Origin: Escherichia phage vB_EcoP-R1
Sequence record: OQ703102.1
Length of the DNA: 40,875 nucleotides
Reading direction: 5' to 3' (one strand)
Made by a program: the position numbers and the translations under genes. Positions 2,501 through 37,039 of the stretch are shown piece by piece. Within the stretch, counting starts at the first letter, position 1. Each line of letters opens with the position of its first letter. Below the pieces are notes generated by a model, which did not search any database, had not been told where the DNA came from, and was given only the letters and a program-made list of their open reading frames with translations.

Positions 2501-4857
2501 TGCCACTAATTACTCAATCAATCAAGAACCTTAAGGGTGGCATTAGCCAACAGCCTGACATACTGAGGTTCTCAGACCAAGGCGAGTCACAGGTTAACTG
2601 CTGGTCATCAGAGAGTGATGGCCTCCAGAAGCGTCCACCTACAGTCTTCAAGCGACGTCTTAACATCGACGTTGGGAGCCACCCTAAGTTCCACCTGATT
2701 AACCGTGATGAGCAGGAGCAGTATTACATCGTGTTCAACGGGTCCAACATTCAGGTAGTTGACTTGAGCGGTAATCAATACTCAGTTTCCGGTGCGGTAG
2801 ACTACGTTAAGTCGCCCAACCCGCGAGATTACATCCGTGTCGTTACCGTTGCAGACTATACGTTCATCGTGAACCGTAAGGTTGTCGTTAAAGGTGGAAG
2901 CGAGACATCACACTCTGGTTATAATCGTAAAGCTCGTGCTTTAATTAACCTGCGTGGTGGACAGTATGGTCGCACCCTTAAGGTAGGAATCAACGGAGGA
3001 GTTAAGGTTGAGCATAAGTTGCCAGCAGGTAATGATGCCGAGAATGACCCTCCTAAGGTGGATGCTCAGGCCATCGGTGCAGCTCTGAGAGACCTTCTTG
3101 TTGCTGCTTACCCTACCTTCACGTTCGACCTTGGGTCTGGATTCCTGTTAATCACTGCCCCTTCAGGGACTGACATTAACTCAGTGGAGACGGAGGATGG
3201 CTACGCTAACCAGCTAATCAGTCCAGTACTCGACACGGTGCAAACAATCTCTAAGTTGCCTCTTGCGGCTCCAAATGGGTACATCATTAAGATTCAAGGG
3301 GAGACCAACAGTAGCGCCGATGAATATTACGTGATGTATGACTCCAACACTAAGACGTGGAAGGAGACAGTAGAGCCGGGAGTGGTCACTGGGTTTGATA
3401 ACACCACAATGCCTCATGCTCTGGTTAGACAATCTGACGGCTCCTTTGAGTTCAAGACTCTGGACTGGTCTAAGCGTGGTGCTGGTAATGATGACACAAA
3501 CCCTATGCCTAGCTTCGTGGATGCCACGATTAACGATGTGTTCTTCTACAGGAATAGGCTGGGGTTCTTGTCAGGCGAGAACGTGATCATGAGCCGTTCA
3601 GCAAGCTACTTTGCGTTCTTCCCTAAGAGTGTGGCGACACTGAGTGATGATGATCCTATTGACGTAGCTGTAAGTCACCCTAGAATCTCAATCCTTAAGT
3701 ATGCCGTTCCGTTTAGCGAGCAGCTACTACTTTGGTCGGATGAGGTTCAGTTCGTGATGACAAGCTCTGGGGTCCTTACCTCGAAGTCTATCCAGCTTGA
3801 TGTAGGCTCAGAGTTTGCCCTAGGTGACAATGCCAGACCGTTCGCTGTAGGACGCTCAGTCTTCTTCTCAGCTCCTCGTGGGTCATTCACCAGTATTAAG
3901 CGATACTTCGCTGTAGCTGATGTATCTGATGTGAAGGATGCAGATGATACAACAGGTCACGTACTGTCCTACATCCCTAACGGGGTGTTTGATATTCAAG
4001 GTACAGGTACTGAGAACTACATCTGCGTCAACTCTACAGGTGCATACAACCGAATCTACATCTACAAGTTCTTGTTTAAGGACGGAGTACAGCTTCAAGC
4101 CTCTTGGTCACACTGGGAGTTCCCTAAAGATGATAAGATTCTGGCGTCTGCTTCTATTGGCTCTACCATGTTCATCGTTCGTCAGCACCAAGGAGGGGTA
4201 GACATTGAGCACCTTAAGTTCATCAAGGAGGCAACTGACTTCCCCTCAGAGCCATATAGACTACACATTGACTCCAAGGTGTCTATGGTAATTCCAATTG
4301 GCTCATATAATGCTGACACCTATAAGACTACGGTTGACATTGGTGCTGCTTATGGTGGCAACGCTCCGTCTCCCGGTCGGTACTATCTGATTGACAGTCA
4401 GGGTGCTTATGTGGACCTTGGGGACTTGTCCAGTATCTCTACTGTGATTACCCTCAACGGCGATTGGTCAGGACGTACAGTGTTCATCGGACGGCCCTAT
4501 CTGATGTCCTACAAGTTCTCACGGTTCCTGATTAAGATTGAAGATGATAGTGGCACTCAGTCTGAAGACACTGGTCGTCTACAGCTTCGTCGGGCTTGGG
4601 TCAACTACAAGGACACTGGCGCTCTGAGACTCATTGTCAGAAACGGTGAGCGGGAGTTCGTGAATACCTTCAACGGGTACACCCTTGGTCAGCAAACCAT
4701 CGGTACTACAAACATTGGTGACGGGCAGTATCGATTCGCTATGAATGGTAACGCATTAACCACGAGTCTAACCTTAGAGTCCGACTATCCTACCCCAGTG
4801 TCCATCGTTGGGTGTGGCTGGGAGGCATCATACGCTAAGAAAGCTCGTTCAGTCTAA
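2500..4857 (+). CDS. 12: Tail tubular protein B (gp12 homolog)
   Basis: 785 aa (T7 gp12 is 794 aa); conserved position; start overlaps gene 11 stop (TAATG). Confidence 0.88.
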   Translation: MPLITQSIKNLKGGISQQPDILRFSDQGESQVNCWSSESDGLQKRPPTVFKRRLNIDVGSHPKFHLINRDEQEQYYIVFNGSNIQVVDLSGNQYSVSGAVDYVKSPNPRDYIRVVTVADYTFIVNRKVVVKGGSETSHSGYNRKARALINLRGGQYGRTLKVGINGGVKVEHKLPAGNDAENDPPKVDAQAIGAALRDLLVAAYPTFTFDLGSGFLLITAPSGTDINSVETEDGYANQLISPVLDTVQTISKLPLAAPNGYIIKIQGETNSSADEYYVMYDSNTKTWKETVEPGVVTGFDNTTMPHALVRQSDGSFEFKTLDWSKRGAGNDDTNPMPSFVDATINDVFFYRNRLGFLSGENVIMSRSASYFAFFPKSVATLSDDDPIDVAVSHPRISILKYAVPFSEQLLLWSDEVQFVMTSSGVLTSKSIQLDVGSEFALGDNARPFAVGRSVFFSAPRGSFTSIKRYFAVADVSDVKDADDTTGHVLSYIPNGVFDIQGTGTENYICVNSTGAYNRIYIYKFLFKDGVQLQASWSHWEFPKDDKILASASIGSTMFIVRQHQGGVDIEHLKFIKEATDFPSEPYRLHIDSKVSMVIPIGSYNADTYKTTVDIGAAYGGNAPSPGRYYLIDSQGAYVDLGDLSSISTVITLNGDWSGRTVFIGRPYLMSYKFSRFLIKIEDDSGTQSEDTGRLQLRRAWVNYKDTGALRLIVRNGEREFVNTFNGYTLGQQTIGTTNIGDGQYRFAMNGNALTTSLTLESDYPTPVSIVGCGWEASYAKKARSV

Positions 4858-5404: not shown

Positions 5405-5976
5405 GTATCGGTCTAGGAATCATGGCTGTAGCCGGGGCCACTATGTCCGCATCCCAACAGGCCAAGGCAGAAGGTGCAGCAATTGACGCTCAGAACCGAC
5501 AGGCTCAGGAAATGGTTAAGCAGATGAACTACTCTGACGCCAACCTGAAGATGCAGGAGCGAGACCTGAAGGAGCAGCAGATGGCTGAACTGACAGAGAC
5601 CACTCTAAACGGTATCCGCAATCAGGGGATGGTCCGAGCTGCAGTGGCTGAGTCAGGTCTGGAAGGTAACTCTATGGACAGGATTGAACGTCAGGTCGAA
5701 GGAGATACAGTCAAGGAGCGAGCAGGGATTACCGAAAGTTACAACCGCGACTATGCGGCTATCTTCGGGAACCGTATCGCCAACATTGAGAACACCAAGT
5801 CTGCTATCCGTGGTCAAGGTAAAATCATCAAGACCAGTCCACTGGCCCATGCACTTAATGTTGCTAACGCCGGGATGCAAGGTTACGCTGCTGGTGAATC
5901 AATGTCTGGGTCATCCAGCTCTGGCGGTTCTGCACCAATTAGGGCTGCTAAAGGCACACCTACAGGTCATAGCTAA
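5389..5976 (+). CDS. 14: Internal virion protein B (gp14 homolog)
   Basis: 195 aa; MCEPVSIGLGIM...SMDRIERQVEGD...NRDYAAIFGN...GTPTGHS resembles T7 gp14 (196 aa); RBS AAGGAGGA. Confidence 0.8.
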   Translation: MCEPVSIGLGIMAVAGATMSASQQAKAEGAAIDAQNRQAQEMVKQMNYSDANLKMQERDLKEQQMAELTETTLNGIRNQGMVRAAVAESGLEGNSMDRIERQVEGDTVKERAGITESYNRDYAAIFGNRIANIENTKSAIRGQGKIIKTSPLAHALNVANAGMQGYAAGESMSGSSSSGGSAPIRAAKGTPTGHS

Positions 5977-5987: not shown

Positions 5988-8270
5988 ATGGCTAGTAATA
6001 TTGAATCAGCTCTGGCTAATCGGACTATGGGTCGCGGCAGAGCGCCGGGTAAAACTATCGCCGTAAACTATCAAGCAGCCAGCGTTCAGGCTCCGACTGG
6101 TGACTCCGGTCTGGCTCGTGCGTTAACCAACTTCGTTGAGTCTGGGACTGGATTGTACAAGCAGTTCAAGGACGATGAAAAGACACGGGCCGACGAGAGG
6201 TCTAACGAGATTATCCGTAAGCTGACACCTCAGCAAAGACGTGAGGCTATCCAGAACGGCACATTGCTGTATCAGGATGACCCTTACGCTATGGAAGCAC
6301 TTCGAGTCAAGACTGGTCGTAATGCTGCCTTTGCTGTAGACGACGAGATTAACGTTAAGATTCAGAACGGTGAGTTCCGTACACGTCAGGACATGGAAGA
6401 GTATCGCCACCAGCGACTTCAGGATGCCGCTAAGTCCTATGCTGAAGAGGCAGGTATTAACCCTACCGACGAGTTCTTCCAGCGTGGCTTCAACGATAAC
6501 ATCACGGACAGAAACATCGCTATCTATGGGTCTTTCAATAAGTATTTCAGCAAGCAGTCTGAAGAGACAGCAATGTTGAACACTCGTATTGAGATGAACT
6601 CATTCCTGAACGATGGCGACCTGATGCGTTCACCTGAGTCTGGCAAGACATTCATGGCCTACCTTCGGGATGGATTGACGACTGCTGCTATACCTTCGGA
6701 CCAGAGAGCACGGGAGGTCATTACCCAGACGGTCCGTGACGCAATCCAGAAGTCCGGCGGCTCAAACTTCCTACAGCAAGTACGAGGCGAGAGAATCACC
6801 CTTAACGGTGTAGATGCTACAGTCGAAGAGATTGTAGGACCGGATGTCTTCAACGCTGCTATTGTTGAGGCACAAGGTACTGAGTATAAACTGGTGGCTA
6901 AGTATCAGGAAGACTTGTCGTTAGGCGTTCAGTCTGCGATTCTTCAGGATGACCCAACCATCGGTCTGGCCCAGATTCAGAAACTCAAGGAGCAGAACAA
7001 CCTGCTTCAGCCGGGTGAAGAACTAACGCCTCAGCGTCAGATGCTTATTAACGCCGAAGCCAGCTTACTGGAAGCGGTCAAGCGTAAGTCTGCTGAACAG
7101 GCAAAGGAGAACACTAAGTTAATCCAGACCCAGAACAAGCAACTGGTCATCGACCAAGTTTATCAGCGACGTCTGGCTGGGGACAACGTGTCCACCAACT
7201 ATGAGGACCTTCCGGTCTCTGAAGCTACAGGAGAGTTCAAGCGTTCAGACATGAACAACTATGCGTCTGCTAAGCTACAGCAGATTGACCAGATGGACAT
7301 CCCTGAGGCTGCTAAGGACGCACAGAAGGTTGCATTATTAAGAGCTGACACTAACAACGGTCCGTTCCGTAATGCCTTCCAGACGCTGACTCAGGACGCT
7401 GCTGGTGAGTGGCAAGCTGCGGTCATCCGTGGGAAGTACGACCCAGACAAGATGCAACGCTTCGAATCTCTTCGTCGTGCCTACACTCAGGACCCTTCAA
7501 GTTTTTCTGCTCTGTATCCTGACCAAGCTCAGTTGTTCTCTACGTTCGACCAGATGGACAAGATGGGTCTGGACCCTCAGACGATGATTGAAGCTGATAA
7601 GCAAGCTGCAAGTCAAAGCCGTGAGATGCGCATGGAGTCAGACAAGGCGTGGCAGGAGTTGAAGAATGACTCTCGGAATAAGGACCTTTCGCGTCTTCCT
7701 ACGTCTCTGGACGCAAGTGCTCGTAAGGTCTGGGACTCATGGTACTATCGTACAGGTAACGCTGACGCTGCAACTCAGCAGACTCAACGCTGGCTGAATG
7801 AGAACACCGTAACGTTCCAGTCTGAAGGTTCTGACGGTAAGTCCATCGGCATGGTGTCCAAGCACCAGCTTATGGTCGGGGATAACCCAGAGTCGTGGCA
7901 GGTGGGTCGAGACATTATCGACACCGCTCGTAAGCAGCTCATTAAGGCCAACCCTTGGGTAGTGAACTCTCAGTTGTCCGTTGTTGAACAGAACGGCTCT
8001 ATCTTCCTCCAAGACGCTACAGGGACTATTCGTATTCGGTACGATAAAGAACTTGTAGGTAAACTCTACCGCGAACAACAGCAGAAGGCACAAGATGCCG
8101 CATACGCTCAGGCAGAACGTGACGCTAACAAGCGAGCGCGTATCGTCGGGACTAAAGCTGCTGGTGACAAACGTCGAGCTGACCGAGAGGCCAACATCGA
8201 GAAGCGCGGTGGGATGTACAATGACGTCTCACTGGAGGGTATCGCAAAAGTACTAATTGGTAAGGAGTAA
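5988..8270 (+). CDS. 15: Internal virion protein C (gp15 homolog)
   Basis: 760 aa (T7 gp15 747 aa); conserved position between gp14 and gp16; strong RBS. Confidence 0.8.
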   Translation: MASNIESALANRTMGRGRAPGKTIAVNYQAASVQAPTGDSGLARALTNFVESGTGLYKQFKDDEKTRADERSNEIIRKLTPQQRREAIQNGTLLYQDDPYAMEALRVKTGRNAAFAVDDEINVKIQNGEFRTRQDMEEYRHQRLQDAAKSYAEEAGINPTDEFFQRGFNDNITDRNIAIYGSFNKYFSKQSEETAMLNTRIEMNSFLNDGDLMRSPESGKTFMAYLRDGLTTAAIPSDQRAREVITQTVRDAIQKSGGSNFLQQVRGERITLNGVDATVEEIVGPDVFNAAIVEAQGTEYKLVAKYQEDLSLGVQSAILQDDPTIGLAQIQKLKEQNNLLQPGEELTPQRQMLINAEASLLEAVKRKSAEQAKENTKLIQTQNKQLVIDQVYQRRLAGDNVSTNYEDLPVSEATGEFKRSDMNNYASAKLQQIDQMDIPEAAKDAQKVALLRADTNNGPFRNAFQTLTQDAAGEWQAAVIRGKYDPDKMQRFESLRRAYTQDPSSFSALYPDQAQLFSTFDQMDKMGLDPQTMIEADKQAASQSREMRMESDKAWQELKNDSRNKDLSRLPTSLDASARKVWDSWYYRTGNADAATQQTQRWLNENTVTFQSEGSDGKSIGMVSKHQLMVGDNPESWQVGRDIIDTARKQLIKANPWVVNSQLSVVEQNGSIFLQDATGTIRIRYDKELVGKLYREQQQKAQDAAYAQAERDANKRARIVGTKAAGDKRRADREANIEKRGGMYNDVSLEGIAKVLIGKE

Positions 8271-12226: not shown

Positions 12227-14758
12227 ATGTCCACGATTACACAATTCCCTTCAGGAAACACTCAGTACAGGATTGAGTTCGACTACCTAGCCAGAACGTT
12301 TGTTGTTGTTACGCTGGTGAATAGCTCTAACCCTACCCTGAACCGTGTACTGGAAGTTGGTCGAGATTACCGATTCCTTAACCCAACGATGATTGAGATG
12401 TTGGTTGACCAATCAGGTTTCGACATCGTTCGTATTCACCGTCAGACTGGAACTGACTTAGTGGTAGACTTCAGGAATGGCTCAGTGTTGACAGCTAGTG
12501 ACCTGACCAATTCAGAGCTTCAGGCTATCCATATTGCAGAAGAAGGTCGAGACCAAACGGTTGACTTAGCGAAGGAATATGCCGATGCTGCTGGTAGCTC
12601 TGCTGGCAACGCTAAGGATAGCGAGGACGAAGCACGCCGAATCGCTGCGAGTATCAGGGAAGCTGGTCTAATTGGCTATATTACCCGTCGCTCCTTCGAG
12701 AAAGGCTACAACGTTACAACATGGAGCGAGGTCCTGCTATGGGAAGAGGATGGTGATTATTACCGCTGGGATGGTACGCTTCCAAAGAACGTTCCTGCTG
12801 GTTCAACTCCTGAAACTTCCGGTGGGATTGGATTAGGTTCGTGGGTTAGTGTTGGTGATGCTGCTTTAAGAAGTCAGATTTCAAACCCGGAAGGGGCAAT
12901 ACTCTACCCGGAATTGCAGATGGCAAGATGGCGTGATGATGGTGATGTTCGAGGCTGGGGTGCTAAAGGGGATGGTGTAACAGATAGTACGGAGAATATA
13001 GCTGCTTCACTAAATTCTCAAAAAGCTGTCGTAGCATCAGAAGGTGTATTCTCTAGTTCTGGTATTAATAGTAATTACTGTAACTTAGACGGCAGAGGCA
13101 GTGGTGTACTAAGTCACCGTTCCAGTACAGGTAACTACTTAGTATTTAACAATCCACGTACAGGTCGCTTAAGTAATATTACGGTAGAAAGTAATAAGGC
13201 GACGGATACCACTCAGGGACAGCAGGTATCTCTTGCTGGTGGCAGTGATGTTACGGTAAGTGACGTTAACTTCTCAAACGTTAAAGGTACTGGTTTCAGT
13301 TTAATCGCATACCCTAATGATGCGCCACCTGATGGGCTTATGATTAAAGGCATTCGAGGTAGCTATTCCGGCTATGCCACTAATAAGGCGGCTGGATGCG
13401 TACTTGCTGACTCCTCAGTTAACTCCCTCATAGATAACGTCATTGCTAAGAACTACCCTCAGTTCGGAGCTGTAGAGCTGAAAGGTACAGCCAGTTACAA
13501 CATAGTTAGTAATGTTATAGGGACAGATTGCCAGCATGTAACCTACAACGGTACTGAAGGGTCAATAGCTCCTTCTAATAACCTTATCAAGGGGGTAGTT
13601 GCTAATAATCCTAAGTATGCAGCGGTTGTTGCAGGCAAAGGTAGTACGAACTTAATATCAGACGTGCTCGTAGATTACTCAACCTCTGATGCTAGGCAGG
13701 CTCATGGTGCTACAGTAGAAGGTTCTGATAACGTCATAAATAATGTGCTTATGACAGGGTGTGATGGTACTAACTCTTTAGGGCAAGCTCAAACTGCTAC
13801 AATTGCTCGCTTTATAGATACAGCTAATAACAACTATGCGTCTGTATTTCCTAGCTACAGTGCTACAGGTGTTATTACTTTCGAATCAGGTTCTACCCGT
13901 AACTTCGTAGAGGTAAAGCATCCGGGAAGGAGAAACGACCTTCTCAGTGCTACTGGTACTATTAGCGGTGCAGATACTATTGACGGCACTAATAATAGCA
14001 ACGTAGTGCACGCCCCTGCATTAGGGCAGTACATAGGCAGTATGTCCGGTAGGTTCGAATGGCGGATTAAGTCCATGTCACTTCCATCAGGGGTTCTTAC
14101 CTCTGCGGATAAGTACAGGATGCTTGCCGATGAGGCTGTGTCATTAGCTGTAGGCGGAGGTACTTCTTCTCAAGTACGCCTGTTCACTTCTGACGGCACT
14201 TATCGGAATATATCACTTACTAGGGGTAACGTGCGTCTTCCTACCAGTAGCACAGGTTATTTGCAGTTAGGTTCTAATGCAATGACACCAGATAGTACTA
14301 ATACATACGCATTAGGTTCCGCAAGTCGAGCATGGTCTGGCGGTTTTACTCAATCAGCATTCACTGTTGTCTCAGATGCTAGGGATAAAACAGAGCCTCT
14401 TAATATCTCAGATGCTTTACTGGATGCTTGGTCTGAAGTTGACTTTGTGCAGTTTCAGTACTTGGACCGAATTGAGGAGAAGGGTGCAGACTCAGCTAGA
14501 TGGCACTTCGGCATCATCGCTCAGCGAGCTAAGGAGGCCTTCGAACGTCACGGTATAGATGCACATCGCTATGGCTTCCTGTGCTTCGACAGTTGGGATG
14601 ATGTATACGAGGAAGATGCCAATGGCTCTCGTAAACTGATTACACCAGCAGGTTCCCGCTACGGTATTCGTTACGAGGAAGTACTGATATTAGAGGCTGC
14701 GTTGATGCGGCGTACTATTAAGCGTATGCAGGAAGCATTAGCTGTTATGTCTAAGTGA
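12227..14758 (+). CDS. 17: Tailspike/tail fiber: T7 gp17-like N-terminal adaptor, pectate-lyase-type beta-helix (putative polysaccharide depolymerase), C-terminal intramolecular chaperone (peptidase S74-like)
   Basis: 843 aa. N-terminal about 150 aa resembles the gp17 tail-attachment domain; GAKGDGVTD motif at aa 245-253 (nt 12959-12985) is the hallmark of pectate-lyase-3 type tailspikes; C-terminal about 128 aa (from SDARDK at nt 14372; ...WHFGIIAQRAKEAF...) resembles the auto-cleaved chaperone domain of endosialidase-type tailspikes. Confidence 0.85.
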   Translation: MSTITQFPSGNTQYRIEFDYLARTFVVVTLVNSSNPTLNRVLEVGRDYRFLNPTMIEMLVDQSGFDIVRIHRQTGTDLVVDFRNGSVLTASDLTNSELQAIHIAEEGRDQTVDLAKEYADAAGSSAGNAKDSEDEARRIAASIREAGLIGYITRRSFEKGYNVTTWSEVLLWEEDGDYYRWDGTLPKNVPAGSTPETSGGIGLGSWVSVGDAALRSQISNPEGAILYPELQMARWRDDGDVRGWGAKGDGVTDSTENIAASLNSQKAVVASEGVFSSSGINSNYCNLDGRGSGVLSHRSSTGNYLVFNNPRTGRLSNITVESNKATDTTQGQQVSLAGGSDVTVSDVNFSNVKGTGFSLIAYPNDAPPDGLMIKGIRGSYSGYATNKAAGCVLADSSVNSLIDNVIAKNYPQFGAVELKGTASYNIVSNVIGTDCQHVTYNGTEGSIAPSNNLIKGVVANNPKYAAVVAGKGSTNLISDVLVDYSTSDARQAHGATVEGSDNVINNVLMTGCDGTNSLGQAQTATIARFIDTANNNYASVFPSYSATGVITFESGSTRNFVEVKHPGRRNDLLSATGTISGADTIDGTNNSNVVHAPALGQYIGSMSGRFEWRIKSMSLPSGVLTSADKYRMLADEAVSLAVGGGTSSQVRLFTSDGTYRNISLTRGNVRLPTSSTGYLQLGSNAMTPDSTNTYALGSASRAWSGGFTQSAFTVVSDARDKTEPLNISDALLDAWSEVDFVQFQYLDRIEEKGADSARWHFGIIAQRAKEAFERHGIDAHRYGFLCFDSWDDVYEEDANGSRKLITPAGSRYGIRYEEVLILEAALMRRTIKRMQEALAVMSK

Positions 14759-15057: not shown

Positions 15058-15317
15058 CGCAGATGGACTTAGAGAAGTTCCTCTTAATGCTAGATACTGA
15101 ACGTGCTAGACTCATGCTGCAAGACCTGCGGGATGACTCTAAGCGTTCACCTCAGCTTTACAACGCCATTGAGAAGCTACTGGCTCGTCACAACTTTGTG
15201 TTAAGCAAGGTGTCTGTGGACGAGAAGACGCTGGCTGATATGGAGGCCCTGAACGCAGAGTACGATAAGGTGCTTTCAGCGACTGAGGATAATGACACCG
15301 GGTATGGTGTTCAATAA
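15054..15317 (+). CDS. 18: Terminase small subunit (gp18 position)
   Basis: 87 aa (T7 gp18 89 aa) between holin and Rz; overlapping start/stop (ATGA). Confidence 0.7.
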   Translation: MTQMDLEKFLLMLDTERARLMLQDLRDDSKRSPQLYNAIEKLLARHNFVLSKVSVDEKTLADMEALNAEYDKVLSATEDNDTGYGVQ

Positions 15318-15321
15318 GTGT

Positions 15322-15366
15322 TAGACTCAAGGTCATTACTATGTGTAGTGGCCTTTATGGTTAACA
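15322..15366 (+). promoter_or_regulatory. RNase III-type processing hairpin (R18.5-like)
   Basis: TTAGACTCAAGGTCAT...GTGGCCTTTATGGTTAA; one of three near-identical copies (also 24159 and 31550); resembles the conserved GTGGCCTTTATGATT element of T7 RNase III sites. Confidence 0.5.
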
Positions 15367-15418
15367 CTAACTAGTGGAGGAGACTCTACGTGAAATCTGA
15401 TAAACCGGGAGGGCAACT

Positions 15419-15894: not shown

Positions 15895-17661
15895 ATGTCT
15901 AAGAAAACACCTGTCGAAAGACAGGCAGAAATGACCCAAAGGATGAGGGACGACTTCGTGTTCTTCATCTTCGTTCTCTGGAAAGCTCTTAGCCTTCCGG
16001 CTCCAACCCGCTGCCAGATAGATATGTGTAAGAAGCTGGCTGCTGGGGATAATCGCCGCTTCATCCTTCAGGCGTTCCGTGGTATTGGCAAGTCGTTTCT
16101 GACCTGTGGTTTCGTGGTCTGGAAACTATGGAACAACCCAGACTTAAAGTTCATGATTGTGTCGGCCTCAAAGGAACGAGCCGATGCTAACTCCATCTTC
16201 ATCAAGCGAATAATCGACCTCATGCCTCAGCTTAAGGAACTCAAACCTAAGCAGGGGCAGCGAGATGCGGTTATCAGCTTCGACGTTGGACCAGCCAAGC
16301 CAGACCACTCACCTTCGGTTAAGTCCGTTGGTATCACTGGTCAGTTGACTGGTAGTCGTGCTGACATCCTGATTGCCGATGACGTGGAGGTTCCGAACAA
16401 CTCAGCGACTCAGTCTGCACGAGACCGTCTGTCAGAGCTTGTGAAAGAGTTCGACGCTATCCTGAAGCCGGGAGGTACAATCATCTATCTGGGTACTCCT
16501 CAGAACGAGATGACCTTGTATCGTGAGCTGGAAGGCCGTGGGTACACCACTACCATCTGGCCTGCTCGTTATCCACGCGACAGGAAGGACTGGCAGTCTT
16601 ACGGCGACCGTCTGGCACCGATGCTTCAGGCAGAGCTGGAAGAGGACCCTGAGTCCTTCTACTGGCGTCCGACCGATGAAGTACGATTCGATGATACGGA
16701 CCTGAAGGAACGTGAGCTGTCCTATGGTAAAGCTGGCTTCGCTCTACAGTTCATGCTTAACCCTAACCTGAGTGATGCTGAGAAGTACCCTCTGAAGCTC
16801 CGTGACCTTATCGTAGCCGACTTGGACCCAGCGTCTAGCCCAATGGTATACCAATGGCTTCCTAACCCTCAGAACAAGCGTGAGGACGTTCCTAACGTTG
16901 GACTCATGGGTGACTCATACCACACGTATCAGACTGTAGGTTCTGCCTTCAGTTCGTACACCCAGAAGATTCTAGTCATTGACCCTAGTGGTCGTGGTAA
17001 GGATGAAACTGGTTATGCGGTACTGTACCAGCTAAACGGCTACATCTTCGCTATGGAAGTTGGCGGTATGCGAGGTGGCTATGAAGACTCTACGCTGGAA
17101 GCCTTGGCTAAGATTGGTCGTAAGTGGAAGGTCAACGAATACGTCATTGAGGGTAACTTCGGTGATGGTATGTACCTTGAGCTATTCAAGCCTGTAGCTT
17201 CCCGTATCCATCCTGCGGCTGTAACTGAAGTGAAGAGTAAGGGTCAGAAGGAACTCCGCATCTGTGACGTTCTGGAGCCTATCATGGGGTCTCACCGACT
17301 TATCGTTAACGCTGCTGCTATCGTCCAAGACTACCAGTCTGCCTCTGATAAGGATGGTGTTCGTAATCCTATCTACTCTCTCTTCTACCAGATGACACGT
17401 ATCTCTCGTGAACGTGGAGCATTGGCACACGATGACCGACTTGATGCGCTGGCTATCGGTGTACAGTTCTTCGTTGAGTCTATGGCTAAGGATGCCAACA
17501 AAGGCGAACGTGAAGTCACTGAGGAGTGGCTGGAGGAACAGATGGAGAACCCACGGAAAGGCTTCGAGTCCATCCACACTGAGTTCTGGGACAATGGGGT
17601 CCGGGTAACTCACGATACGGACGACGAGCTTGGACTAGGGTCCTACGTTACGTTCCACTAG
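15895..17661 (+). CDS. 19: Terminase large subunit (gp19 homolog)
   Basis: 588 aa (T7 gp19 586 aa); conserved position; RBS GGAGGGA. Confidence 0.93.
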
Positions 17662-17755
17662 CTGAATGAATAACTATGGGTGAAAACTGAATTAATAAGC
17701 AGTTAGTAACCTATAGTTACTACCAGTCTAACCTACTGTTTTATAAGGAGTTTGG

Positions 17756-17778
17756 ACTTAACTATCACTATAGGGAAG
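17756..17778 (+). promoter_or_regulatory. Phage RNAP promoter (phiOR-like, near the right genome end)
   Basis: GACTTAACTATCACTATAGGGAA; +1 G at 17773. Confidence 0.8.
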
Positions 17779-17958
17779 ACCCCCGGTTACTTATAGTATT
17801 ACTGTAGTGAATATACATATGCAGACTTTATGCAAGACCTTAGGAGGCAGACTCCGAGTTCTTACCTAAGGCTTGCACCGATGGAAGGAGGGTGATATTA
17901 ATCATAATCCCTCCAATACAGATAGTCACCGACCATAGATACAGGAGGTATGTAGCAT

Positions 17959-18117
17959 ATGGCAAAGACCAAAGCTGTACTTAAAGCTCTGGCGACCAAT
18001 CGAGCTACATACAGGTTTCTTGCTGCTGTTCTACTTGCTGCTGGCGTTACTGCTGGAAGTAAGTGGGTCGGGTGGGTCGAGACTCTCGTATGTTCTCTGG
18101 TGTCTCAGTGTAATTAA
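17959..18117 (+). CDS. Small hydrophobic protein (gp19.5 position)
   Basis: 52 aa MAKTKAVLKALATNRATYRFLAAVLLAAGVTAGSKWVGWVETLVCSLVSQCN with RBS AGGAGGT 8 nt upstream; below the track size cutoff. Confidence 0.4.
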   Translation: MAKTKAVLKALATNRATYRFLAAVLLAAGVTAGSKWVGWVETLVCSLVSQCN

Positions 18118-18150
18118 CGCAATCATGGTAACGATTCATGAGCGGAAGAC

Positions 18151-18193
18151 CTAAGGTCAGTACGTGGATAAAGACTCACTCTACTGACCTTAG
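18151..18193 (+). repeat. Perfect 12-bp inverted repeat (CTAAGGTCAGTA / TACTGACCTTAG) forming a hairpin in the right-end unique region
   Basis: Read directly from the sequence; arms separated by 19 nt. Confidence 0.6.
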
Positions 18194-18355
18194 CTACTGT
18201 AGTCAAGGACTTTAGGTAACACCTTAATAGAAGCTCACCTAGGGTCATCCTACTTATTGGTCTATCCTAGTGTCGCCTGACCTACGGTCCTTGACCTACA
18301 GTAGCTGCCACCTACGGTCACTCGATGAGTTTTGGACCAAAAGTTTGAGACCACA

Positions 18356-18550
18356 TCTCACAGTTCAAGAACCTCAAGTCTCCCCATAGGCCCTCTTTCA
18401 GTCCAGACCAAAGGCCCTACCCCAGTCTATCATAAGGTTAGACCGATGGTCAAGACGTTAGGTCAACGATAGGTCTAGGCTATGGCTTAGGGAAGGACGA
18501 TAGGTAGGGACTATGGGTCTGTCTCTGAGTCTCTATCTGTATAGTGATAT
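18356..18550 (+). repeat. Genome terminal repeat region (single copy at the joined right-end/left-end junction)
   Basis: TCTCACAGTTCAAGAACCTCAAGTCTCCCCATAGG... closely resembles the first bases of the T7 left end (TCTCACAGTGTACGGACCTAAAGT...); the stretch ...GTCTCTGAGTCTCTATCTGT near 18520-18540 resembles the end of the T7 terminal repeat. Boundaries approximate. Confidence 0.5.
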
Positions 18551-18571
18551 AGTATAACATTACGTCCTACA

Positions 18572-18660
18572 CCTACAGTCTGACTAACCTACAGTCTGAC
18601 TAACCTACAGTATCAACCATAAGACACCAACACCTACAGTCAAAGACCTACAGCTAATAG
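18572..18660 (+). repeat. Short direct repeats built on CCTACAG (including a 16-bp tandem CCTACAGTCTGACTAA x2)
   Basis: Read directly; analogous in position to the CCTAAAG-type repeats next to the T7 terminal repeat. Confidence 0.6.
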
Positions 18661-18767
18661 ACACAAAGCTATAGACTTAAGGTCAGAGACATGTTAGTCA
18701 AAGACTATATCCTATTACTCACCATGGGGCCGACGATAGCTCAATCAATATTATTTAAGATTACCTA

Positions 18768-18796
18768 TTGACTACAGGTCCAGACTATGGCTTAAT
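18768..18796 (+). promoter_or_regulatory. Host sigma70-type early promoter (A1-like)
   Basis: TTGACT - 17 bp - CTTAAT with AT-rich upstream element; resembles T7 A1 (TTGACT...GATACT). Confidence 0.45.
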
Positions 18797-18908
18797 AGCT
18801 TCCGTCAACACGACACGGCAACAACCGGATAGTGAAGACGCCGGGTCATCCCGGTTAAGTAGACAGCCTGATAAGTCATACGAACAACAGGCAGATGACA
18901 GAAAGTAG

Positions 18909-18938
18909 TTGACAAGATGTACCGACTTAAAGTAGTAT
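18909..18938 (+). promoter_or_regulatory. Host sigma70-type early promoter (A3-like)
   Basis: GTTGACAAGATGTACCGACTTAAAGTAGTATGTACCACATCAAC resembles T7 A3; -35 TTGACA, -10 TAGTAT with 18-bp spacer. Confidence 0.5.
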
Positions 18939-19060
18939 GTACCACATCAACACGAAACAACGGTGACGACCAACACTGAAATGGTCTACCTGAAGTCCTC
19001 TGACTGAAGGGAATGCTCTTTAACAATCTGGATAAACTCTTAATGTGCGCCGATAGCGAC

Positions 19061-19115
19061 TAACTACAGGGTCTTTGAGTCTACATTTGAAGGCCCTGAC
19101 TGATAGTCACTAACT
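19061..19115 (+). repeat. Early-leader element copy 1 (R0.3-like), direct repeat of 19382-19430
   Basis: ...CTAACTACAGGGTC...CCTGACTGATAGTCACTAAC; the 20-nt core CCTGACTGATAGTCACTAAC is identical in both copies and resembles the T7 gene 0.3 leader. Confidence 0.5.
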
Positions 19116-19121
19116 TAACGG

Positions 19122-19376
19122 ATGGACACTATGAAACACTTAAGCACAATCACTAATCACAATGAAGTATTCGTGAACACTAAAGGTTATGCGTGGATTC
19201 AGCTTAAAGAGATGACAGGAGCGCGTCACCGTGTGGTAGTGCGCAGGGTATCAAGCAAGCCGTTCAGCAACTACAGTATAGACACTGTGCGTATAGACAA
19301 CGATACCTACCTGATAGACTCACAGATAACCGTGAGTCCTACAGCGAGCGCCTCAGCTCCTTATTTCGCTAACTGA
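19122..19376 (+). CDS. Hypothetical early protein upstream of ocr
   Basis: 84 aa ORF (alternative start ATG 19131); bracketed by two copies of the leader repeat; no recognisable motif. Confidence 0.5.
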   Translation: MDTMKHLSTITNHNEVFVNTKGYAWIQLKEMTGARHRVVVRRVSSKPFSNYSIDTVRIDNDTYLIDSQITVSPTASASAPYFAN

Positions 19377-19381
19377 GAGTG

Positions 19382-19430
19382 ATTAACTACAGGTCGTTAG
19401 ACTCATAGCGGCCTGACTGATAGTCACTAA
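19382..19430 (+). repeat. Early-leader element copy 2, immediately upstream of ocr
   Basis: Direct repeat of 19061-19115. Confidence 0.5.
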
Positions 19431-19463
19431 CATACATATAAACAACTTTGAGAGGATATAACT

Positions 19464-19967
19464 ATGGAACGCAACGCTAACGCATACTATGAGCTGCTGG
19501 CTGCAACCGTTGAGGCATTTATCGAGCGTATTCAGTACGACCACCTGACTAAAGATGACGACTACAGCGATGCGCTGCATGAGGTCGTAGACGGTCAGGT
19601 CCCGCTCTATTACCACGAGATTTTCACGGTGATGGCTGCTGATGGTATAGACCACGAGTTCGAAGACTCTGGGCTGATGCCTGAAACCAAGGACGTAACG
19701 CGTATCCTACAAGCTCGCATCTATGAGGCACTTTATAACGACGTGTCTAATAGCTTGGATGTAGTCTGGTTTGAGGATGAAGAGGCAGACGAAGAGGATG
19801 AATATTGGGTAGTTGACGCTAAAACAGGCGCAATAATTGTGCAATCTGTAGCTCTTGAGGTCGCTACTGCATGTGCCGAGGTCAACTATGCGGCAGGTCG
19901 CCACCTGAAGGTGGAAGACATCAATGATAACGTAGTGTTCGACCCTGCGGCTGAGGACTGCGAGTGA
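19464..19967 (+). CDS. 0.3: Ocr-like anti-restriction DNA mimic (gp0.3 homolog) with a C-terminal extension of about 50 aa
   Basis: 167 aa; ...[54 protein letters not shown]... parallels T7 Ocr (...[46 protein letters not shown]...); acidic run [12 protein letters not shown], then extra non-acidic sequence absent from T7 Ocr (117 aa). Confidence 0.85.
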
Positions 19968-20121
19968 TGATAACTTACGGTTTATGCCAGCACCACGTCA
20001 CCAACGCCAGGATTTTGGTCAAAACCGGGCGGTTAAACCACGAGGAGGCCATGCGTCTCTTGAAAGTGGTCTACAGGAGACGCAAGCGCATACACGATAG
20101 TTTACACACTGAGTGATAGAC

Positions 20122-20158
20122 GAGAGGTCATCGACTGATAGGTGGCCTCAAAGATTAT
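20122..20158 (+). promoter_or_regulatory. RNase III-type hairpin (R0.5-like)
   Basis: GAGGTCATCGACTGATAGGTGGCCTCAAAGATTA matches the AAGGTCAT...GTGGCCT...ATTA pattern of the other hairpins. Confidence 0.35.
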
Positions 20159-20182
20159 CACTTACATTGATAGGGGTTAACT

Positions 20183-20287
20183 ATGAGCACTGCAGTCATC
20201 TGGACTATCTCAGGCTTCGTAGCGTGGGGAATGTTTACTCTAGTCTGCAAACTACCGGTCCTTACTCAACTGTTATGGGGCTTATGA
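20183..20287 (+). CDS. Small hydrophobic early protein (gp0.4-like position)
   Basis: 34 aa MSTAVIWTISGFVAWGMFTLVCKLPVLTQLLWGL; ATG 20183; single predicted transmembrane helix. Confidence 0.35.
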   Translation: MSTAVIWTISGFVAWGMFTLVCKLPVLTQLLWGL

Positions 20288-20487
20288 CTATGAGTAGCAC
20301 ACTATTGATAGCCATAGGCTATGGACTTATCGCCTACGTGCTGGTGAGAGACATCAACAAAGCGCGTAAAGTCTATAAATTCAACTATGTACGTATGGTC
20401 CGCTGGACTGTACGTCAACCTAACGGACGATTCCTGCGCAATTTAGCGAACGTCTGGGATATAGCAACTCTTGGGAGCAAACTGTAA
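20284..20487 (+). CDS. Small early protein (gp0.5/0.6 position)
   Basis: 67 aa from ATG 20284 (overlaps the preceding stop as ATGA); same frame as track ORF 20113..20487, whose upstream part lacks a credible start. Confidence 0.35.
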   Translation: MTMSSTLLIAIGYGLIAYVLVRDINKARKVYKFNYVRMVRWTVRQPNGRFLRNLANVWDIATLGSKL

Positions 20488-20813
20488 TGAACAAGTCATA
20501 CGGGATTAATCTGGTACACTCTATGGACGCAGAAATGAACATGTTAAGCCTACTGGCTACCGGGTATCGTCACGGAACATCAAGTCACACCGCACGTCAA
20601 CAGCAGGAGCGGGACCGTGTACTACAGGCGCGACTCCGGGCAGAGGGCCATAAGTCCGAACTGATGTGTCTGGCGTATGGTGGACGACCAATCACCGACG
20701 ATGGTAAACTTTTAGTCTCAGGCTGGAAGGCGATAGACCAACGGTCAACCATCAAGCACACGACTCACGGTGACTTCAGTCATCTTCACGCTAACCCACT
20801 GATATGCAAGTAA
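20487..20813 (+). CDS. Hypothetical early protein occupying the position of T7 gene 0.7 (no kinase)
   Basis: 108 aa, no kinase motifs; T7 gp0.7 is 359 aa. Confidence 0.45.
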   Translation: MNKSYGINLVHSMDAEMNMLSLLATGYRHGTSSHTARQQQERDRVLQARLRAEGHKSELMCLAYGGRPITDDGKLLVSGWKAIDQRSTIKHTTHGDFSHLHANPLICK

Positions 20814-20818
20814 TTATG

Positions 20819-20841
20819 ACTTAACTATCACTATAGGACTC
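20819..20841 (+). promoter_or_regulatory. Phage RNAP promoter immediately upstream of the RNAP gene
   Basis: GACTTAACTATCACTATAGGACT; +1 G at 20836; followed by tandem repeats CAAGTGAAAGAC (20857 and 20881). Confidence 0.75.
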
Positions 20842-20910
20842 AAGGTCTAAGACTCCAAGTGAAAGACCAAAGAGACTCTAAGTGAAAGACTAATAACAAG
20901 GACTTTAAGT

Positions 20911-23592
20911 ATGAGCGTCATCTCTATTGACAAACATGACTTCTCTGATGTGTCAAACGCCATTGAGCCGTTTAACCTGCTGGCCGACCACTACGGGCAA
21001 GACCTTGCAGTCAAACAGCTTCAGCTTGAGCATGAGGCATATACAGAAGGCGAGCGACGTTTCATCAAGAACCTTGAGCGCCAGACCGAGCGCGGGGAAC
21101 TGGCAGACAATCAGGTCGCCAAGCCTTTGATGCAGACTCTGGTCCCTAAGATTGCGCAAGCCGTCAGGGAGTGGCACGAAGGCCTAGACGGGAAGCTGTC
21201 AACCTCGCGTCCTAGCGTAGCGTTCACCATGTTGAGCACTGAAGAGAAGGCCGTAAAGGACCGCTCTATGCGCATCTCCTGTGAGTCCGCTGCGGTTATC
21301 ATACTGAAGGTCATACTCTCCAAGCTGGTCAAGCCTGAAGGGATACCGATTACACCGATGGCCTCCGCGATAGGTCGCACACTTGAGGACGAAATCCGCT
21401 TCGGTCGCATCCGTGACAAAGAGAAGGAGCACTTCAAGAAGGCGATAGCTGAGAACCTGAACAAGCGAGCTGGGGCATCCTACAAGAAAGCCTACATGCA
21501 AGCGGTCGAGGCGTCCATGCTGGAGCAAGGCCAACTGGAAGATGCATGGGGGACTTGGAGTCCTACAGAGGCTGTCCACGTTGGCATCAAGATGCTCGAG
21601 ATTGTCATCCAGTCAACACAACTGGTCGAGCTTAAGCGGTACGGTGCTGGTAATGCAGCGGCTGACGTAGAGATGGTCCACCTGTCAGACTTCTGGGTCA
21701 AGAAGATGGCACAACGAGGATTCAGCCTTGCGGGTATCGCTCCAGTCTACCAGCCTTGCGTCGTTCCACCTAAGCCGTGGACTGGTGTCGTAGGTGGTGG
21801 GTACTGGGCCAAAGGTCGCAGACCGTTACCATTGATTCGCTTAGGGTCTAAGTCTGCGGTAGCACGTTATGAAGACGTATACATGCCTGAAGTCTATGAC
21901 GCTGTGAACATCATTCAGAATACACCTTGGAAAGTTAACAAGAAGGTATTGGACGTGGTGAACATGGTCGAGAAGCTGAACAACACGCCTATTGATGACA
22001 TCCCTCAGATGGAACCGCTGAAGCCTGAGGACTATGCTGGTGAAACCGAGGAGGAACTCAAGGCATGGAAGAAGGCTGCTGCTGGTATCTATCGCCGCGA
22101 GAAGGCCAGACAGTCACGCAGATTGTCCATGAGTTTCATCGTATCACAGGCCAACAAGTTCTCACAGTTTAAGGCCATCTGGTTCCCGTACAACATGGAT
22201 TGGCGAGGTCGTGTCTACGCTGTCCCGATGTTCAACCCTCAGGGTAACGACATGCAGAAGGGTCTACTGACTCTGGCGGTCGGAAAGCCTATCGGGGCGG
22301 ATGGTTTCAAATGGCTTAAAGTCCACACCGCCAACTGCGCGGGTGTCGATAAGGTAACCTTTGAGGAGCGTATCAAATGGGTGGAAGACAATCACGAGAA
22401 CATTCTGGCAGCAGCCAAATCACCGATGGACAGCATCGAGTGGTGGGGGAGTATGGACAGCCCCTTCTGCTTCCTAGCGGCTTGCTTCGAGTATTCTGGG
22501 GTGATGAACCATGGCTTGACCTACAATTGCTCACTTCCGATTGCCTTCGACGGCTCGTGTTCGGGGATTCAGCACTTCAGCGCGATGCTGAGGGACCACG
22601 TAGGCGGACATGCAGTGAACTTAACGCCGTCTGGTCAGGTGCAGGACATCTACCGTATAGTCTCAGACCGTGTGTCAGACCAGTTGAAAGAGCTATTACT
22701 GATCGGTACGGACGACGAGCTGGTGACCGTAGAGGACAAGAAGACTGGGGAAATCAGCGAACGCCTGAAGCTTGGGACCAAGAGTCTTGCGCGTCAGTGG
22801 CTGCAATTCGGTATGTCTCGCTCGGTCACTAAGCGCTCGGTCATGACTCTGGCCTACGGGTCGAAAGAGTATGGGTTCGCCGACCAAGTGTTCGAAGACA
22901 CCGTGATGCCAGCGATTGACTCCGGTAAGGGAGCAATGTTCACCGAGCCAAGCCAAGCGTCTCGCTTCATGGCTAAGATGATTTGGGAAGCTGTGAGTGT
23001 GACAGTAGTTGCTGCGGTTGACGCGATGAAGTGGCTTCAAGGTGCCGCCAAGCTGCTGGCTGCTGAAGTGAAGGACAAGAAGACTGGTGAAATCCTGAAG
23101 CCATGCCTTCCGGTACACTGGGTCACACCTGATGGGTTCCCGGTCTGGCAGGAATACCGCAAGAAGGATACCACTCGTCTGAACCTGATGTTCTTAGGGT
23201 CCTTCAACCTTCAACCTACGGTCAACAAAGGTACGAAGAAAGAGCTGGACAAGCACAAGCAGGAGTCAGGCATTAGCCCGAACTTCGTCCACTCACAAGA
23301 TGGTAGCCACCTCCGCAAGACTGTAGTCCACACGCACCGCAAGTATGGCGTGATGTCATTCGCAGTGATTCACGATAGCTTCGGGACCATCCCGGCTGAC
23401 GCTGAGTATCTGTTCCGTGGCGTCCGTGAGACGATGGTAGAGACATACCGCGATAACGATGTGCTGCTTGACTTCTACGAGCAGTTTGAATACCAGCTTC
23501 ATGAAAGCCAGCGCGACAAGTTGCCTGAGCTTCCGAAGAAAGGTAAACTGAATATCGAAGACATCTTGTCTTCAGACTTTGCATTCGCTTAA
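20911..23592 (+). CDS. 1: Single-subunit DNA-dependent RNA polymerase (gp1 homolog)
   Basis: 893 aa; NDFSD...PFN.LADHYG, GRIRD.E..HFKK, PCVVPPKPWTG..GGGYWA.GRRPL, AIWFPYNMDWRGRVYA, FDGSCSGIQHFSAMLRD, RSVTKRSVMTLAYGSKE, HDSFGT and C-terminal FAFA all parallel T7 RNAP. Confidence 0.97.
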   Translation: MSVISIDKHDFSDVSNAIEPFNLLADHYGQDLAVKQLQLEHEAYTEGERRFIKNLERQTERGELADNQVAKPLMQTLVPKIAQAVREWHEGLDGKLSTSRPSVAFTMLSTEEKAVKDRSMRISCESAAVIILKVILSKLVKPEGIPITPMASAIGRTLEDEIRFGRIRDKEKEHFKKAIAENLNKRAGASYKKAYMQAVEASMLEQGQLEDAWGTWSPTEAVHVGIKMLEIVIQSTQLVELKRYGAGNAAADVEMVHLSDFWVKKMAQRGFSLAGIAPVYQPCVVPPKPWTGVVGGGYWAKGRRPLPLIRLGSKSAVARYEDVYMPEVYDAVNIIQNTPWKVNKKVLDVVNMVEKLNNTPIDDIPQMEPLKPEDYAGETEEELKAWKKAAAGIYRREKARQSRRLSMSFIVSQANKFSQFKAIWFPYNMDWRGRVYAVPMFNPQGNDMQKGLLTLAVGKPIGADGFKWLKVHTANCAGVDKVTFEERIKWVEDNHENILAAAKSPMDSIEWWGSMDSPFCFLAACFEYSGVMNHGLTYNCSLPIAFDGSCSGIQHFSAMLRDHVGGHAVNLTPSGQVQDIYRIVSDRVSDQLKELLLIGTDDELVTVEDKKTGEISERLKLGTKSLARQWLQFGMSRSVTKRSVMTLAYGSKEYGFADQVFEDTVMPAIDSGKGAMFTEPSQASRFMAKMIWEAVSVTVVAAVDAMKWLQGAAKLLAAEVKDKKTGEILKPCLPVHWVTPDGFPVWQEYRKKDTTRLNLMFLGSFNLQPTVNKGTKKELDKHKQESGISPNFVHSQDGSHLRKTVVHTHRKYGVMSFAVIHDSFGTIPADAEYLFRGVRETMVETYRDNDVLLDFYEQFEYQLHESQRDKLPELPKKGKLNIEDILSSDFAFA

Positions 23593-24138: not shown

Positions 24139-24161
24139 CCTAAACTATCACTATAGGATTA
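24139..24161 (+). promoter_or_regulatory. Phage RNAP promoter (phi1.1-like)
   Basis: ACCTAAACTATCACTATAGGATT; +1 G at 24156. Confidence 0.8.
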
Positions 24162-24206
24162 GACTCAAGGTCATGACTCAAAGTCGTGGCCTTCATGATT
24201 AACCCT
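24159..24206 (+). promoter_or_regulatory. RNase III-type processing hairpin (R1.1-like)
   Basis: TTAGACTCAAGGTCATGACTCAAAGTCGTGGCCTTCATGATTAACC; near-identical to the copies at 15322 and 31550. Confidence 0.5.
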
Positions 24207-24231
24207 AACTCATTCAATCAGGAGCTACACC

Positions 24232-31381: not shown

Positions 31382-31546
31382 TTGCTAAGAAAACTTAAAG
31401 CTCGCTACCATCGGTTCATGTACAAATGGTGGAGTGATGAAGCAACCTGCCTGTCCAACATTCTGGGAGACCAGAGGTTCGACTCTAAGGCTTGGAAGAA
31501 GGCTAACCGGAAGTTTATGTATCACTTCTTGCGTACAGACTTCTAG
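31382..31546 (+). CDS. Hypothetical small protein (gp4.3 position; start uncertain)
   Basis: Track ORF 31349..31546 overlaps the gene 4 end; a TTG at 31382 follows RBS AAGGAGG; an ATG at 31419 is the alternative. Confidence 0.35.
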
Positions 31547-31549
31547 GTC

Positions 31550-31592
31550 TAGACTCAAGGTCATTCACATCGAGTGGCCTTTATGATTAGAC
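31550..31592 (+). promoter_or_regulatory. RNase III-type processing hairpin (R4.7-like)
   Basis: TAGACTCAAGGTCATTCACATCGAGTGGCCTTTATGATTAG; third near-identical copy. Confidence 0.5.
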
Positions 31593-31614
31593 TTATAACT
31601 AAAGGAGAAGCAAT

Positions 31615-36800: not shown

Positions 36801-36814
36801 CTGTAGGAGGGACT

Positions 36815-37039
36815 ATGTGTTTCAGTCCGAAGATTAGCACTCCGAAGCCTTCGGTCCAAGCACCTGAACCAGCACCTCTGAGTGAGGAAGTTGCGTCAGT
36901 TGACATCGGGGCTGAATCAGATGTGGACACCAACGAGACCCAAGGTATCAAAGACCTGAAGGTCAAGAAGGAGTCTGCACCTAAAGATAAATCGTCAGTT
37001 AGCCGCGCCATGCGAGCCTCTGGCGTCAACATGGGGTAA
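36815..37039 (+). CDS. 6.7: gp6.7-like virion protein
   Basis: 74 aa; N-terminal MCFSPKI.TPK and EPAPL motif resemble T7 gp6.7. Confidence 0.7.
   Translation: MCFSPKISTPKPSVQAPEPAPLSEEVASVDIGAESDVDTNETQGIKDLKVKKESAPKDKSSVSRAMRASGVNMG

Follow-up and report, generated by a model that had tools for sequence, protein, structure and literature searches.

Why should a T7-family phage carry, ahead of its anti-restriction gene, two copies of an element that resembles the leader of that gene, and what is the small open reading frame (ORF) lodged between them? The locus lies in a stretch of 40,875 nt from Escherichia phage vB_EcoP-R1 (OQ703102.1), referred to here as the window. Its large terminase gene runs to 17661 and its RNA polymerase gene begins at 20911, which identifies it as a T7-family genome in circularly permuted form and places the locus at the start of the early region. 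The 1.5 kb around it show 95-96% identity to the LI10P1/LM33_P1 group and 90% identity to phage K1F, all Kayfunavirus genomes, and the phage is a K1F-like member of that genus. The answer that we favor, with a probability of about 0.75 for the account as a whole, is that the two copies are hairpins of the RNase III type, that the gene between them, gene 0.2, is an accessory gene in a hairpin-linked cassette slot, and that its product would interfere with a host factor or defense early in infection.

The preliminary description of this DNA claimed two direct repeats with an identical 20-nt core, and this holds to the letter: the two copies of the core, CCTGACTGATAGTCACTAAC, match at 20 of 20 positions, 317 nt apart, and are the only matches in the entire window even with three mismatches allowed (chance expectation 0.03; none of 100 shuffles reached two matches). 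Both of the intervals originally proposed correspond to real copies, although the second, 19382-19430, ends 1 nt before the end of the core. The repeat units are wider than the core, as a repeat search adds to it the segments 19052-19081 and 19375-19404, at 73% identity, and a covariance model sets the bounds of the units that are given in Table 1. Over their full extent, the copies are 71% identical: the 5' arms resemble each other, the upper stems differ and the 3' cores are the same letter for letter. Folding of both repeats, which had been suggested as a check, yields long irregular hairpins in each case, and none of 200 shuffles folds as well. The hairpins are intercistronic, lie on the sense strand and follow the two host promoters that begin at 18768 and 18909; the stop codon of gene 0.2 sits in the 5' flank of the second hairpin.

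Table 1. Positions of the features around the duplicated leader element, with the basis of each assignment
Feature	Position in the window	Strand	Basis
Host (sigma-70) early promoter	18768..18804	+	34/37 nt identical to the annotated host RNAP promoter of EcoDS1 (feature 112-148), local alignment
Host early promoter, T7 A3-like (TTGACA, 18-nt spacer, TAGTAT)	18909..18939	+	consensus scan 10/12; maps to the annotated host promoter 252-290 of EcoDS1
Conserved leader segment GCTCTTTAACAATCTGG	19015..19031	+	common to T7 upstream of R0.3; alignment of window, K1F and T7
Hairpin copy 1 ("R0.2"), 71 nt, T7-type, putative RNase III type, upstream of gene 0.2	19050..19120	+	covariance model 73.8 bits; MFE -25.2 kcal/mol, z -5.35
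20-nt core, copy 1: 3' strand of hairpin	19095..19114	+	exact match; spans predicted cleavage region ~19101/19102
Gene 0.2 (K1F gp0.2 family, PHROG 10124), 81 aa from the probable start	19131..19376	+	K1F annotation; PHROG E 1.5e-39, residues 1-81
Hairpin copy 2 (functional R0.3 by position), 65 nt, between gene 0.2 and ocr	19373..19437	+	covariance model 79.8 bits; MFE -23.3 kcal/mol, z -4.83
20-nt core, copy 2	19412..19431	+	exact match; predicted cleavage ~19418/19419
ocr-like anti-restriction gene, 167 aa, with C-terminal extension	19464..19967	+	Pfam PF08684 (ocr) E 9.3e-29, residues 8-95; PHROG 2568
Next putative RNase III-type hairpin (R0.5-like), closing the ocr/0.35 unit	20107..20171	+	covariance model 40 bits, E 1.5e-8; MFE -24.5 kcal/mol, z -5.0

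The resemblance to the leader of T7 gene 0.3 that was initially noted is borne out in detail. Both copies align to the R0.3 region of T7 (T7 nt 848-910, within an alignment window of T7 nt 800-927), with the elements TAGCG..TAAC and GATA..CACTAA retained, and copy 1 also has the upstream T7 flank GCTCTTTAACAATCTGG, which makes it the positional equivalent of T7 R0.3. In the minimum free energy structures, the succession of a lower stem, an asymmetric internal loop and an upper stem is common to both copies, T7 R0.3 and four other sites of the window. When seven hairpins were aligned, namely, two each from the window, K1F and a Klebsiella Przondovirus together with T7 R0.3, the consensus structure comprised 19 pairs, with compensatory changes in 8 of the 19, in what is a small sample from Kayfunavirus, Przondovirus and T7. 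A covariance model, R1, that was trained solely on this alignment of R0.3-type hairpins and scanned over the whole T7 genome produced six high-confidence matches (1424-1488, 3097-3157, 5844-5905, 13850-13911, 18498-18582 and 36813-36875), all of them intergenic and none present in the training set, which precede genes 0.5, 1, 1.1, 4.7, 6.5 and 18.5, respectively, as well as a weak match, at 6421-6446, before gene 1.3. These positions are, we assume, those of the mapped RNase III sites R0.5, R1, R1.1, R4.7, R6.5, R18.5 and R1.3; the names and coordinates of the T7 sites reportedly come from the mapping by Dunn and Studier in 1983. A scan of positions 17600-21000 against Rfam at E <= 1 returned no family for these hairpins. 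Given the homology to R0.3, the shared architecture, the compensatory changes and the R1 matches to the other T7 sites, both repeats are, as judged from sequence, T7-type RNase III processing hairpins with predicted cleavage. The putative cleavage positions in Table 1 were transferred by alignment from T7 R0.3, in which we take the cut to fall at about nt 890.

The model R1 also locates four further T7-type RNase III-like intergenic hairpins with the same architecture in the window, at 20107-20171, 15312-15377, 24150-24215 and 31540-31602 (E-values from 1.5e-8 to 3.6e-5, z from -3.4 to -5.0), and the one at 24150-24215 begins inside the phage-promoter-like sequence CACTATAGG at 24149. Stop codons of the genes carried at this locus, here denoted cargo genes, adjoin or fall inside the 5' arm of the next hairpin (19373-19383 in the window), and the 5'-arm motif (T)AGTGATTAAC includes TAG, TGA and TAA. 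The T7 genes 0.4, 0.7, 4.5, 6.3 and 18 likewise terminate within the 5' arm of the next hairpin, with overlaps at 1424-1433, 3097-3100, 13850-13853, 18498-18507 and 36813-36822.

The assertion that the ORF occupies the first-expressed position of the genome agrees with the arrangement of the early region, in which gene 0.2 is the first gene after the two host promoters and lies directly upstream of ocr, the latter identified by its Pfam match. In T3, the order is A1-A3, R0.3, gene 0.3 (PMC3276506). A 46-aa ORF at 18768-18908 (PHROG 30192) occupies the aligned position of the annotated gene 0.1 of K1F; because it starts at the TTGACT -35 hexamer of the host promoter and covers the promoter region, we regard it as a doubtful gene. 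Between the terminase gene and the early promoters, the segment 18280-18653 contains a family of short direct repeats with the sequence ACCTACAG, including an exact tandem 16-mer at 18571-18602; this is presumably a genome-end or terminal-repeat region. The Ocr-like protein of the window has a C-terminal extension of approximately 55 aa that follows an acidic run and lies outside the Pfam ocr domain (residues 8-95). This long form is common to the window, K1F, KE14 and CLB_P1, and Ocr has 110-114 aa in EcoDS1, phiYIO1-1, TM1, EcpYZU01 and the IMG/VR contig L025.

Comparison with related phages for the presence or absence of the ORF, another check that had been suggested, reveals polymorphism in Kayfunavirus at the site that separates ocr from the host promoters. 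When the 60 phage records that best matched an empty-site query were scored as contiguous or inserted, at least 24 of the 60 were empty (contiguous) and 36 contained an insertion of approximately 240-350 nt. The genomes examined individually display several states of the site. The slot is empty, with one hairpin, in phiYIO1-1, KE14 and EcoDS1; it is filled by gp0.2 (81 aa), with two hairpins, in the window, K1F, 101118UKE1 and Pipis; it contains an unrelated 92-aa gene in TM1 and AN24P4 and an unrelated 58-aa gene in EcpYZU01, again with two hairpins; and in the contig L025 it holds the 92-aa gene plus gp0.2, with three hairpins and the exact core in each. In CLB_P1, the slot contains gp0.15, and the replaced stretch takes in copy 1 as well as the 5' half of copy 2. 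The number of cargo genes tracks the number of hairpins, n cargo genes being accompanied by n+1 hairpins. In the genomes compared, whether Ocr is long or short bears no relation to the state of the slot. The same three states recur in Przondovirus, with hairpin variants of its own: the slot holds a homologue of gp0.2 in K10PH82C1, nothing in cp32 and, in vB_Kp1, a homologue of the 58-aa cargo.

The boundaries of these insertions, deletions and replacements coincide with hairpins in 9 of the 9 comparison genomes examined. To the left, the genomes remain homologous up to the 3' end of the core, right after CACTAAC, and to the right, the limit is the stop codon of the cargo gene, adjoining the 5' arm of the next hairpin. 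The single hairpin of the empty genomes phiYIO1-1, KE14 and EcoDS1 combines the copy-1 flank, the copy-1 upper stem and the core with the copy-2 (ocr) leader, and this chimeric structure places the breakpoint inside the shared core or at its end; the stretch missing from the empty genomes examined is gene 0.2 plus one hairpin-equivalent. In TM1, AN24P4, EcpYZU01 and L025, the copy-2-type hairpin is alike whichever cargo precedes it, be it gp0.2, the 92-aa gene or the 58-aa gene. Moreover, in T7-like contigs from IMG/VR, the identical 20-nt core precedes a 150-aa ORF (L019, 887-1339) and at least three other unrelated first genes. The 150-aa ORF behind the core in L019 is one that we take to resemble the SAM hydrolase of T3.

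The core positions in the contigs with other first genes are approximately 950 in L032, 134 in L031 and 934 in L022. A close relative of the phage studied here, 101118UKE1, carries further downstream an extra gene for a 75-aa cysteine-rich protein that is absent from the window; this gene (2275-2502) lies between two hairpins (2201-2264 and 2559-2623), and the upstream one is chimeric, with a 5' half of the R0.5 type joined to the R0.3-type core CCTGACTGATAGTCATTAAC.

The occurrence of the same copy-2-type hairpin after unrelated cargos, together with the combination of three hairpins and two cargos, indicates that the architecture is that of a cassette slot delimited by predicted RNase III-type hairpins rather than a one-off duplication tied to gene 0.2, and that the second hairpin is a component of the slot and not of gene 0.2. 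The preliminary description had read the arrangement as a gene acquired together with a copy of the leader, and this stands insofar as the unit of insertion or deletion is indeed the gene plus one hairpin-equivalent; what does not stand is the bond between this gene and this hairpin, as the same type of hairpin also follows unrelated cargo. The corresponding alternative, under which a single event brought in gene 0.2 with its own copy of the R0.3 leader, so that copy 2 (or copy 1) would be part of the mobile gene, appears unlikely. It would account for the composition of the indel unit and its spacing of 317-323 nt, and the Przondovirus homologue of gp0.2 is likewise bracketed by two hairpins; however, these hairpins differ in their upper stems from those of Kayfunavirus, the copy-2-type hairpin is the same with each of the three cargos, and the available data already point to a clustering of the copy-2 hairpins by host genome and not by cargo gene. 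Furthermore, the homologues of gp0.2 outside Studiervirinae (in phiKT, phiWec190 and EC1-UPM, that is, including N4-like and phAPEC8-like phages) showed no such flanking hairpins, which implies that gene 0.2 can move without them.

Under a different explanation, the two copies would be independent RNase III sites, the similarity of which reflects the constraint of RNA function alone, with no part in DNA rearrangement. Sites of the T7 family do share a consensus, ACTCAAGG...CCTTTATGAT.ATCACT, with pairwise identity of up to 75% across genomes, and the site at 15312 in the window shares 75% identity with T7 R0.5, so a part of the similarity between copy 1 and copy 2 can be attributed to functional constraint. 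As the complete explanation, constraint is nevertheless improbable: the two cores agree at all 20 positions, compared to roughly 12-14 of 20, counted by eye, at the four other sites of the same genome; L025 contains three exact cores; and the coincidence of rearrangement boundaries with hairpins in all nine comparison genomes is hard to reconcile with a purely RNA-level role. The behavior of direct repeats in T7, among which deletion reportedly climbs steeply with repeat length (Pierce et al., 1991), also speaks against a lack of involvement in rearrangement. A role of the core as a signal in the DNA (a promoter of phage or host type, for example, or a site of protein binding) instead of an RNA element is highly improbable. 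An exact repeat within a regulatory region might be expected of such a signal, but the only sigma-70-like match nearby is weak and falls inside the ORF, and the compensatory base changes favor an RNA structure. As for a phage promoter specifically, this candidate is ruled out, the T7-type promoter motif of the window, CACTATAGG, having no match in 19050-19440.

The cassette reading thus retained, the identity of the cargo in the window can be considered. The preliminary description gave it as an 84-aa ORF (19122-19376) that lacks a counterpart in T7. The gene is real and the lack of a counterpart is confirmed, the best E-value in a tblastn search of the whole T7 genome being 1.3, but the start is probably the second ATG, at 19131, which yields 81 aa, as this is where the homologues in other lineages and the K1F annotation begin. 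Gene 0.2 is not a new ORF, as it is already annotated as gp0.2 (hypothetical) in the 2005-era GenBank record of K1F, AM084414. The product is a basic protein of 9.2 kDa with a pI of 9.5, for which an AlphaFold (AF2) model built from 19 sequences, with a pLDDT of 79, shows an all-beta fold of six strands. Homologues were detected by tblastn in 118 phage records, in the genera Kayfunavirus, Przondovirus, Ermolevavirus, Gamaleyavirus (N4-like) and Phapecoctavirus. The amino acid identity is 86-96% in Kayfunavirus, 72-75% in Klebsiella Przondovirus, 75% in the 150-kb Phapecoctavirus, about 60% in the Ermolevavirus phages phiKT and PGT2, and 33-50% in the N4-like Gamaleyavirus, where the gene lies in the early region. 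The dN/dS ratio is 0.16-0.65 within Kayfunavirus, and in the comparison with the phiWec190 copy, synonymous sites are saturated at a dN of 0.25; from these values, gene 0.2 is a real protein-coding gene. The least credible of the alternatives, that the ORF is open by chance or has a housekeeping function, draws on its short length, the lack of a Pfam family and a weak Shine-Dalgarno sequence, but it is contradicted by the preservation of the protein in four further genera of phages (33-76% identity, synonymous change being saturated), by the confident structural model and by the natural absence of the gene from many otherwise similar phages. By the same token, the housekeeping function that had been named at the outset as speaking against an acquired early gene is not what we find. 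Gene 0.2 is accessory and dispensable, and it has passed between unrelated groups of phages.

In phiWec190, a Phapecoctavirus of 150 kb, the homologue of gp0.2 is found within an array of five repeats of about 90 nt (1406-1495, 1745-1828, 2472-2559, 2804-2888 and 3119-3202). The repeat unit consists of a sigma-70-like promoter, a GC stem-loop and a Shine-Dalgarno sequence and occurs once before each small gene; this array resembles the promoter-early stem-loop (PeSL) cassettes of T4.

Searches for the function of gp0.2 gave the following results. PHROG 10124, the gp0.2 family, has no assigned function in the sources examined; gp0.2 has no Pfam match at E <= 1 and no match in NCBIfam or in PADLOC, which covers defense, not anti-defense, proteins; and the all-beta model has no fold match in the PDB. 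Matches in BFVD are uncharacterized small podophage proteins only. A phmmer search of 1.84 billion representatives returned 17 matches, which were small phage proteins and long repetitive proteins, the latter judged to be spurious multi-repeat matches. An association of gp0.2 with a fixed neighbor gene was considered and rejected, as the next genes, with products starting MAMAITAKYL and MAIIAKTE, are unrelated. The possibility that gp0.2 is itself an Ocr or another DNA mimic was rejected as well, given the lack of an Ocr profile match, the basic pI and the all-beta model with no sequence or fold similarity to Ocr. Literature searches on K1F gp0.2, on RNase III and K1F, and on early or anti-defense genes of Kayfunavirus yielded nothing pertinent and no paper on the function of gp0.2, and neither a gp0.2 sequence nor any reference to K1F or LM33 occurs in the accessory-gene preprint of Silas et al. 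with its 39 supplementary files.

A scheme for the operation of the slot can be proposed in which the roles of the hairpins in forming mRNA ends are modeled on mRNA processing in T7. The early operon is transcribed by the host RNA polymerase from the promoters near 18.77 and 18.91 kb, and host RNase III would cut in the internal loop of each hairpin, near 19101/19102 and 19418/19419. Such cleavage would yield an mRNA for gene 0.2 alone, protected at its 3' end by a stem-loop, and would give the ocr mRNA the same 5' end whatever sits upstream, the hairpins functioning as insulators and copy 2 providing ocr once more with the same processed leader. In the DNA, the hairpins would serve as linkers of the cassette slot, such that recombination between near-identical hairpins would delete, replace or stack cargo genes; on this sequence evidence, loss of gene 0.2 by recombination between the repeats would be as plausible as its gain. 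From the reported effect of repeat length on deletion in T7, a 20-nt repeat at a distance of 317 nt should be deletion-prone, which leads to the prediction that the persistence of gene 0.2 between such repeats would imply selection in natural hosts. The weakest step of the scheme is the last one, namely, that gp0.2 would interfere with a host factor or defense very early in infection; this most likely role is suggested by the position of the gene, its dispensability and its horizontal spread.

The first genes expressed by a T7-like phage decide whether it survives host restriction and other defenses. The position ahead of ocr turns out to be variable, with 0, 1 or 2 small unrelated genes that are always parted by the same processing-type hairpin, which points to a way for a phage to gain genes ahead of ocr while leaving the expression of ocr intact. 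The hairpin model also provides a sequence handle for listing candidate host-interference genes in hundreds of coliphages of the therapeutic type and Klebsiella phages. A conservative view could be taken as well, with the locus amounting to known T7 RNase III sites and an already catalogued hypothetical gene. A broader reading, which we put forward tentatively, is that the R0.3-type hairpin of Studiervirinae is a dual-purpose module, an RNA insulator and at the same time the DNA linker of a landing pad before ocr, through which phages trade counter-defense genes, gp0.2 being a new anti-defense protein. The gene pool so envisaged would comprise gp0.2, the 92-aa, 58-aa and 75-aa cargos, gp0.15 and the SAM-hydrolase-like gene. 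If this reading is true, gp0.2 is an anti-defense protein common to T7-like, N4-like and phAPEC8-like phages, and scanning for ORFs bracketed by hairpins would be a direct route to anti-defense genes.

With respect to known systems, the K1F gene 0.2 product (CAJ29341; PHROG 10124) is the same in 91% amino acid identity, in position and in its flanking hairpins, with no substantial difference. Ocr (T7 gp0.3) and the SAM hydrolase of T3 occupy the same first-gene niche behind an R0.3-type leader; gp0.2 differs from Ocr in being basic, with an all-beta model and no sequence or fold similarity, and shows no homology to a characterized anti-defense family in Pfam, NCBIfam, PHROGs (unknown function) or the PDB. 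The hairpins share with the RNase III sites of T7 and T3 (the R0.3, R0.5, R1, R1.1 family) the stem-internal loop-stem design, the location on the transcribed strand and the position after host promoters. However, a single site precedes the first gene in T7 and T3, whereas here two predicted sites, and elsewhere up to three, all near-identical and of the R0.3 type, follow one another, and the 20-nt 3' core is the same in each. In terms of genome evolution, the PeSL cassettes come closest among the systems described; these are mobile regulatory cassettes of T4-type phages in which the motif consists of a sigma-70 promoter and a terminator stem-loop (Arbiol et al. 2010, PMC2839356; Comeau et al. 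2014, PMC4122927). The difference lies in the motif, which in the window is an RNase III-type hairpin inside one polycistronic transcript; a consensus scan found no promoter or terminator consensus (T-run) in either hairpin of the window. What the two systems have in common is that small repeated regulatory motifs flank non-essential ORFs and that the boundaries of insertion, deletion and replacement lie at the motif, as is seen here in the empty, replaced and doubly occupied slots, all of which have their junctions at hairpins.
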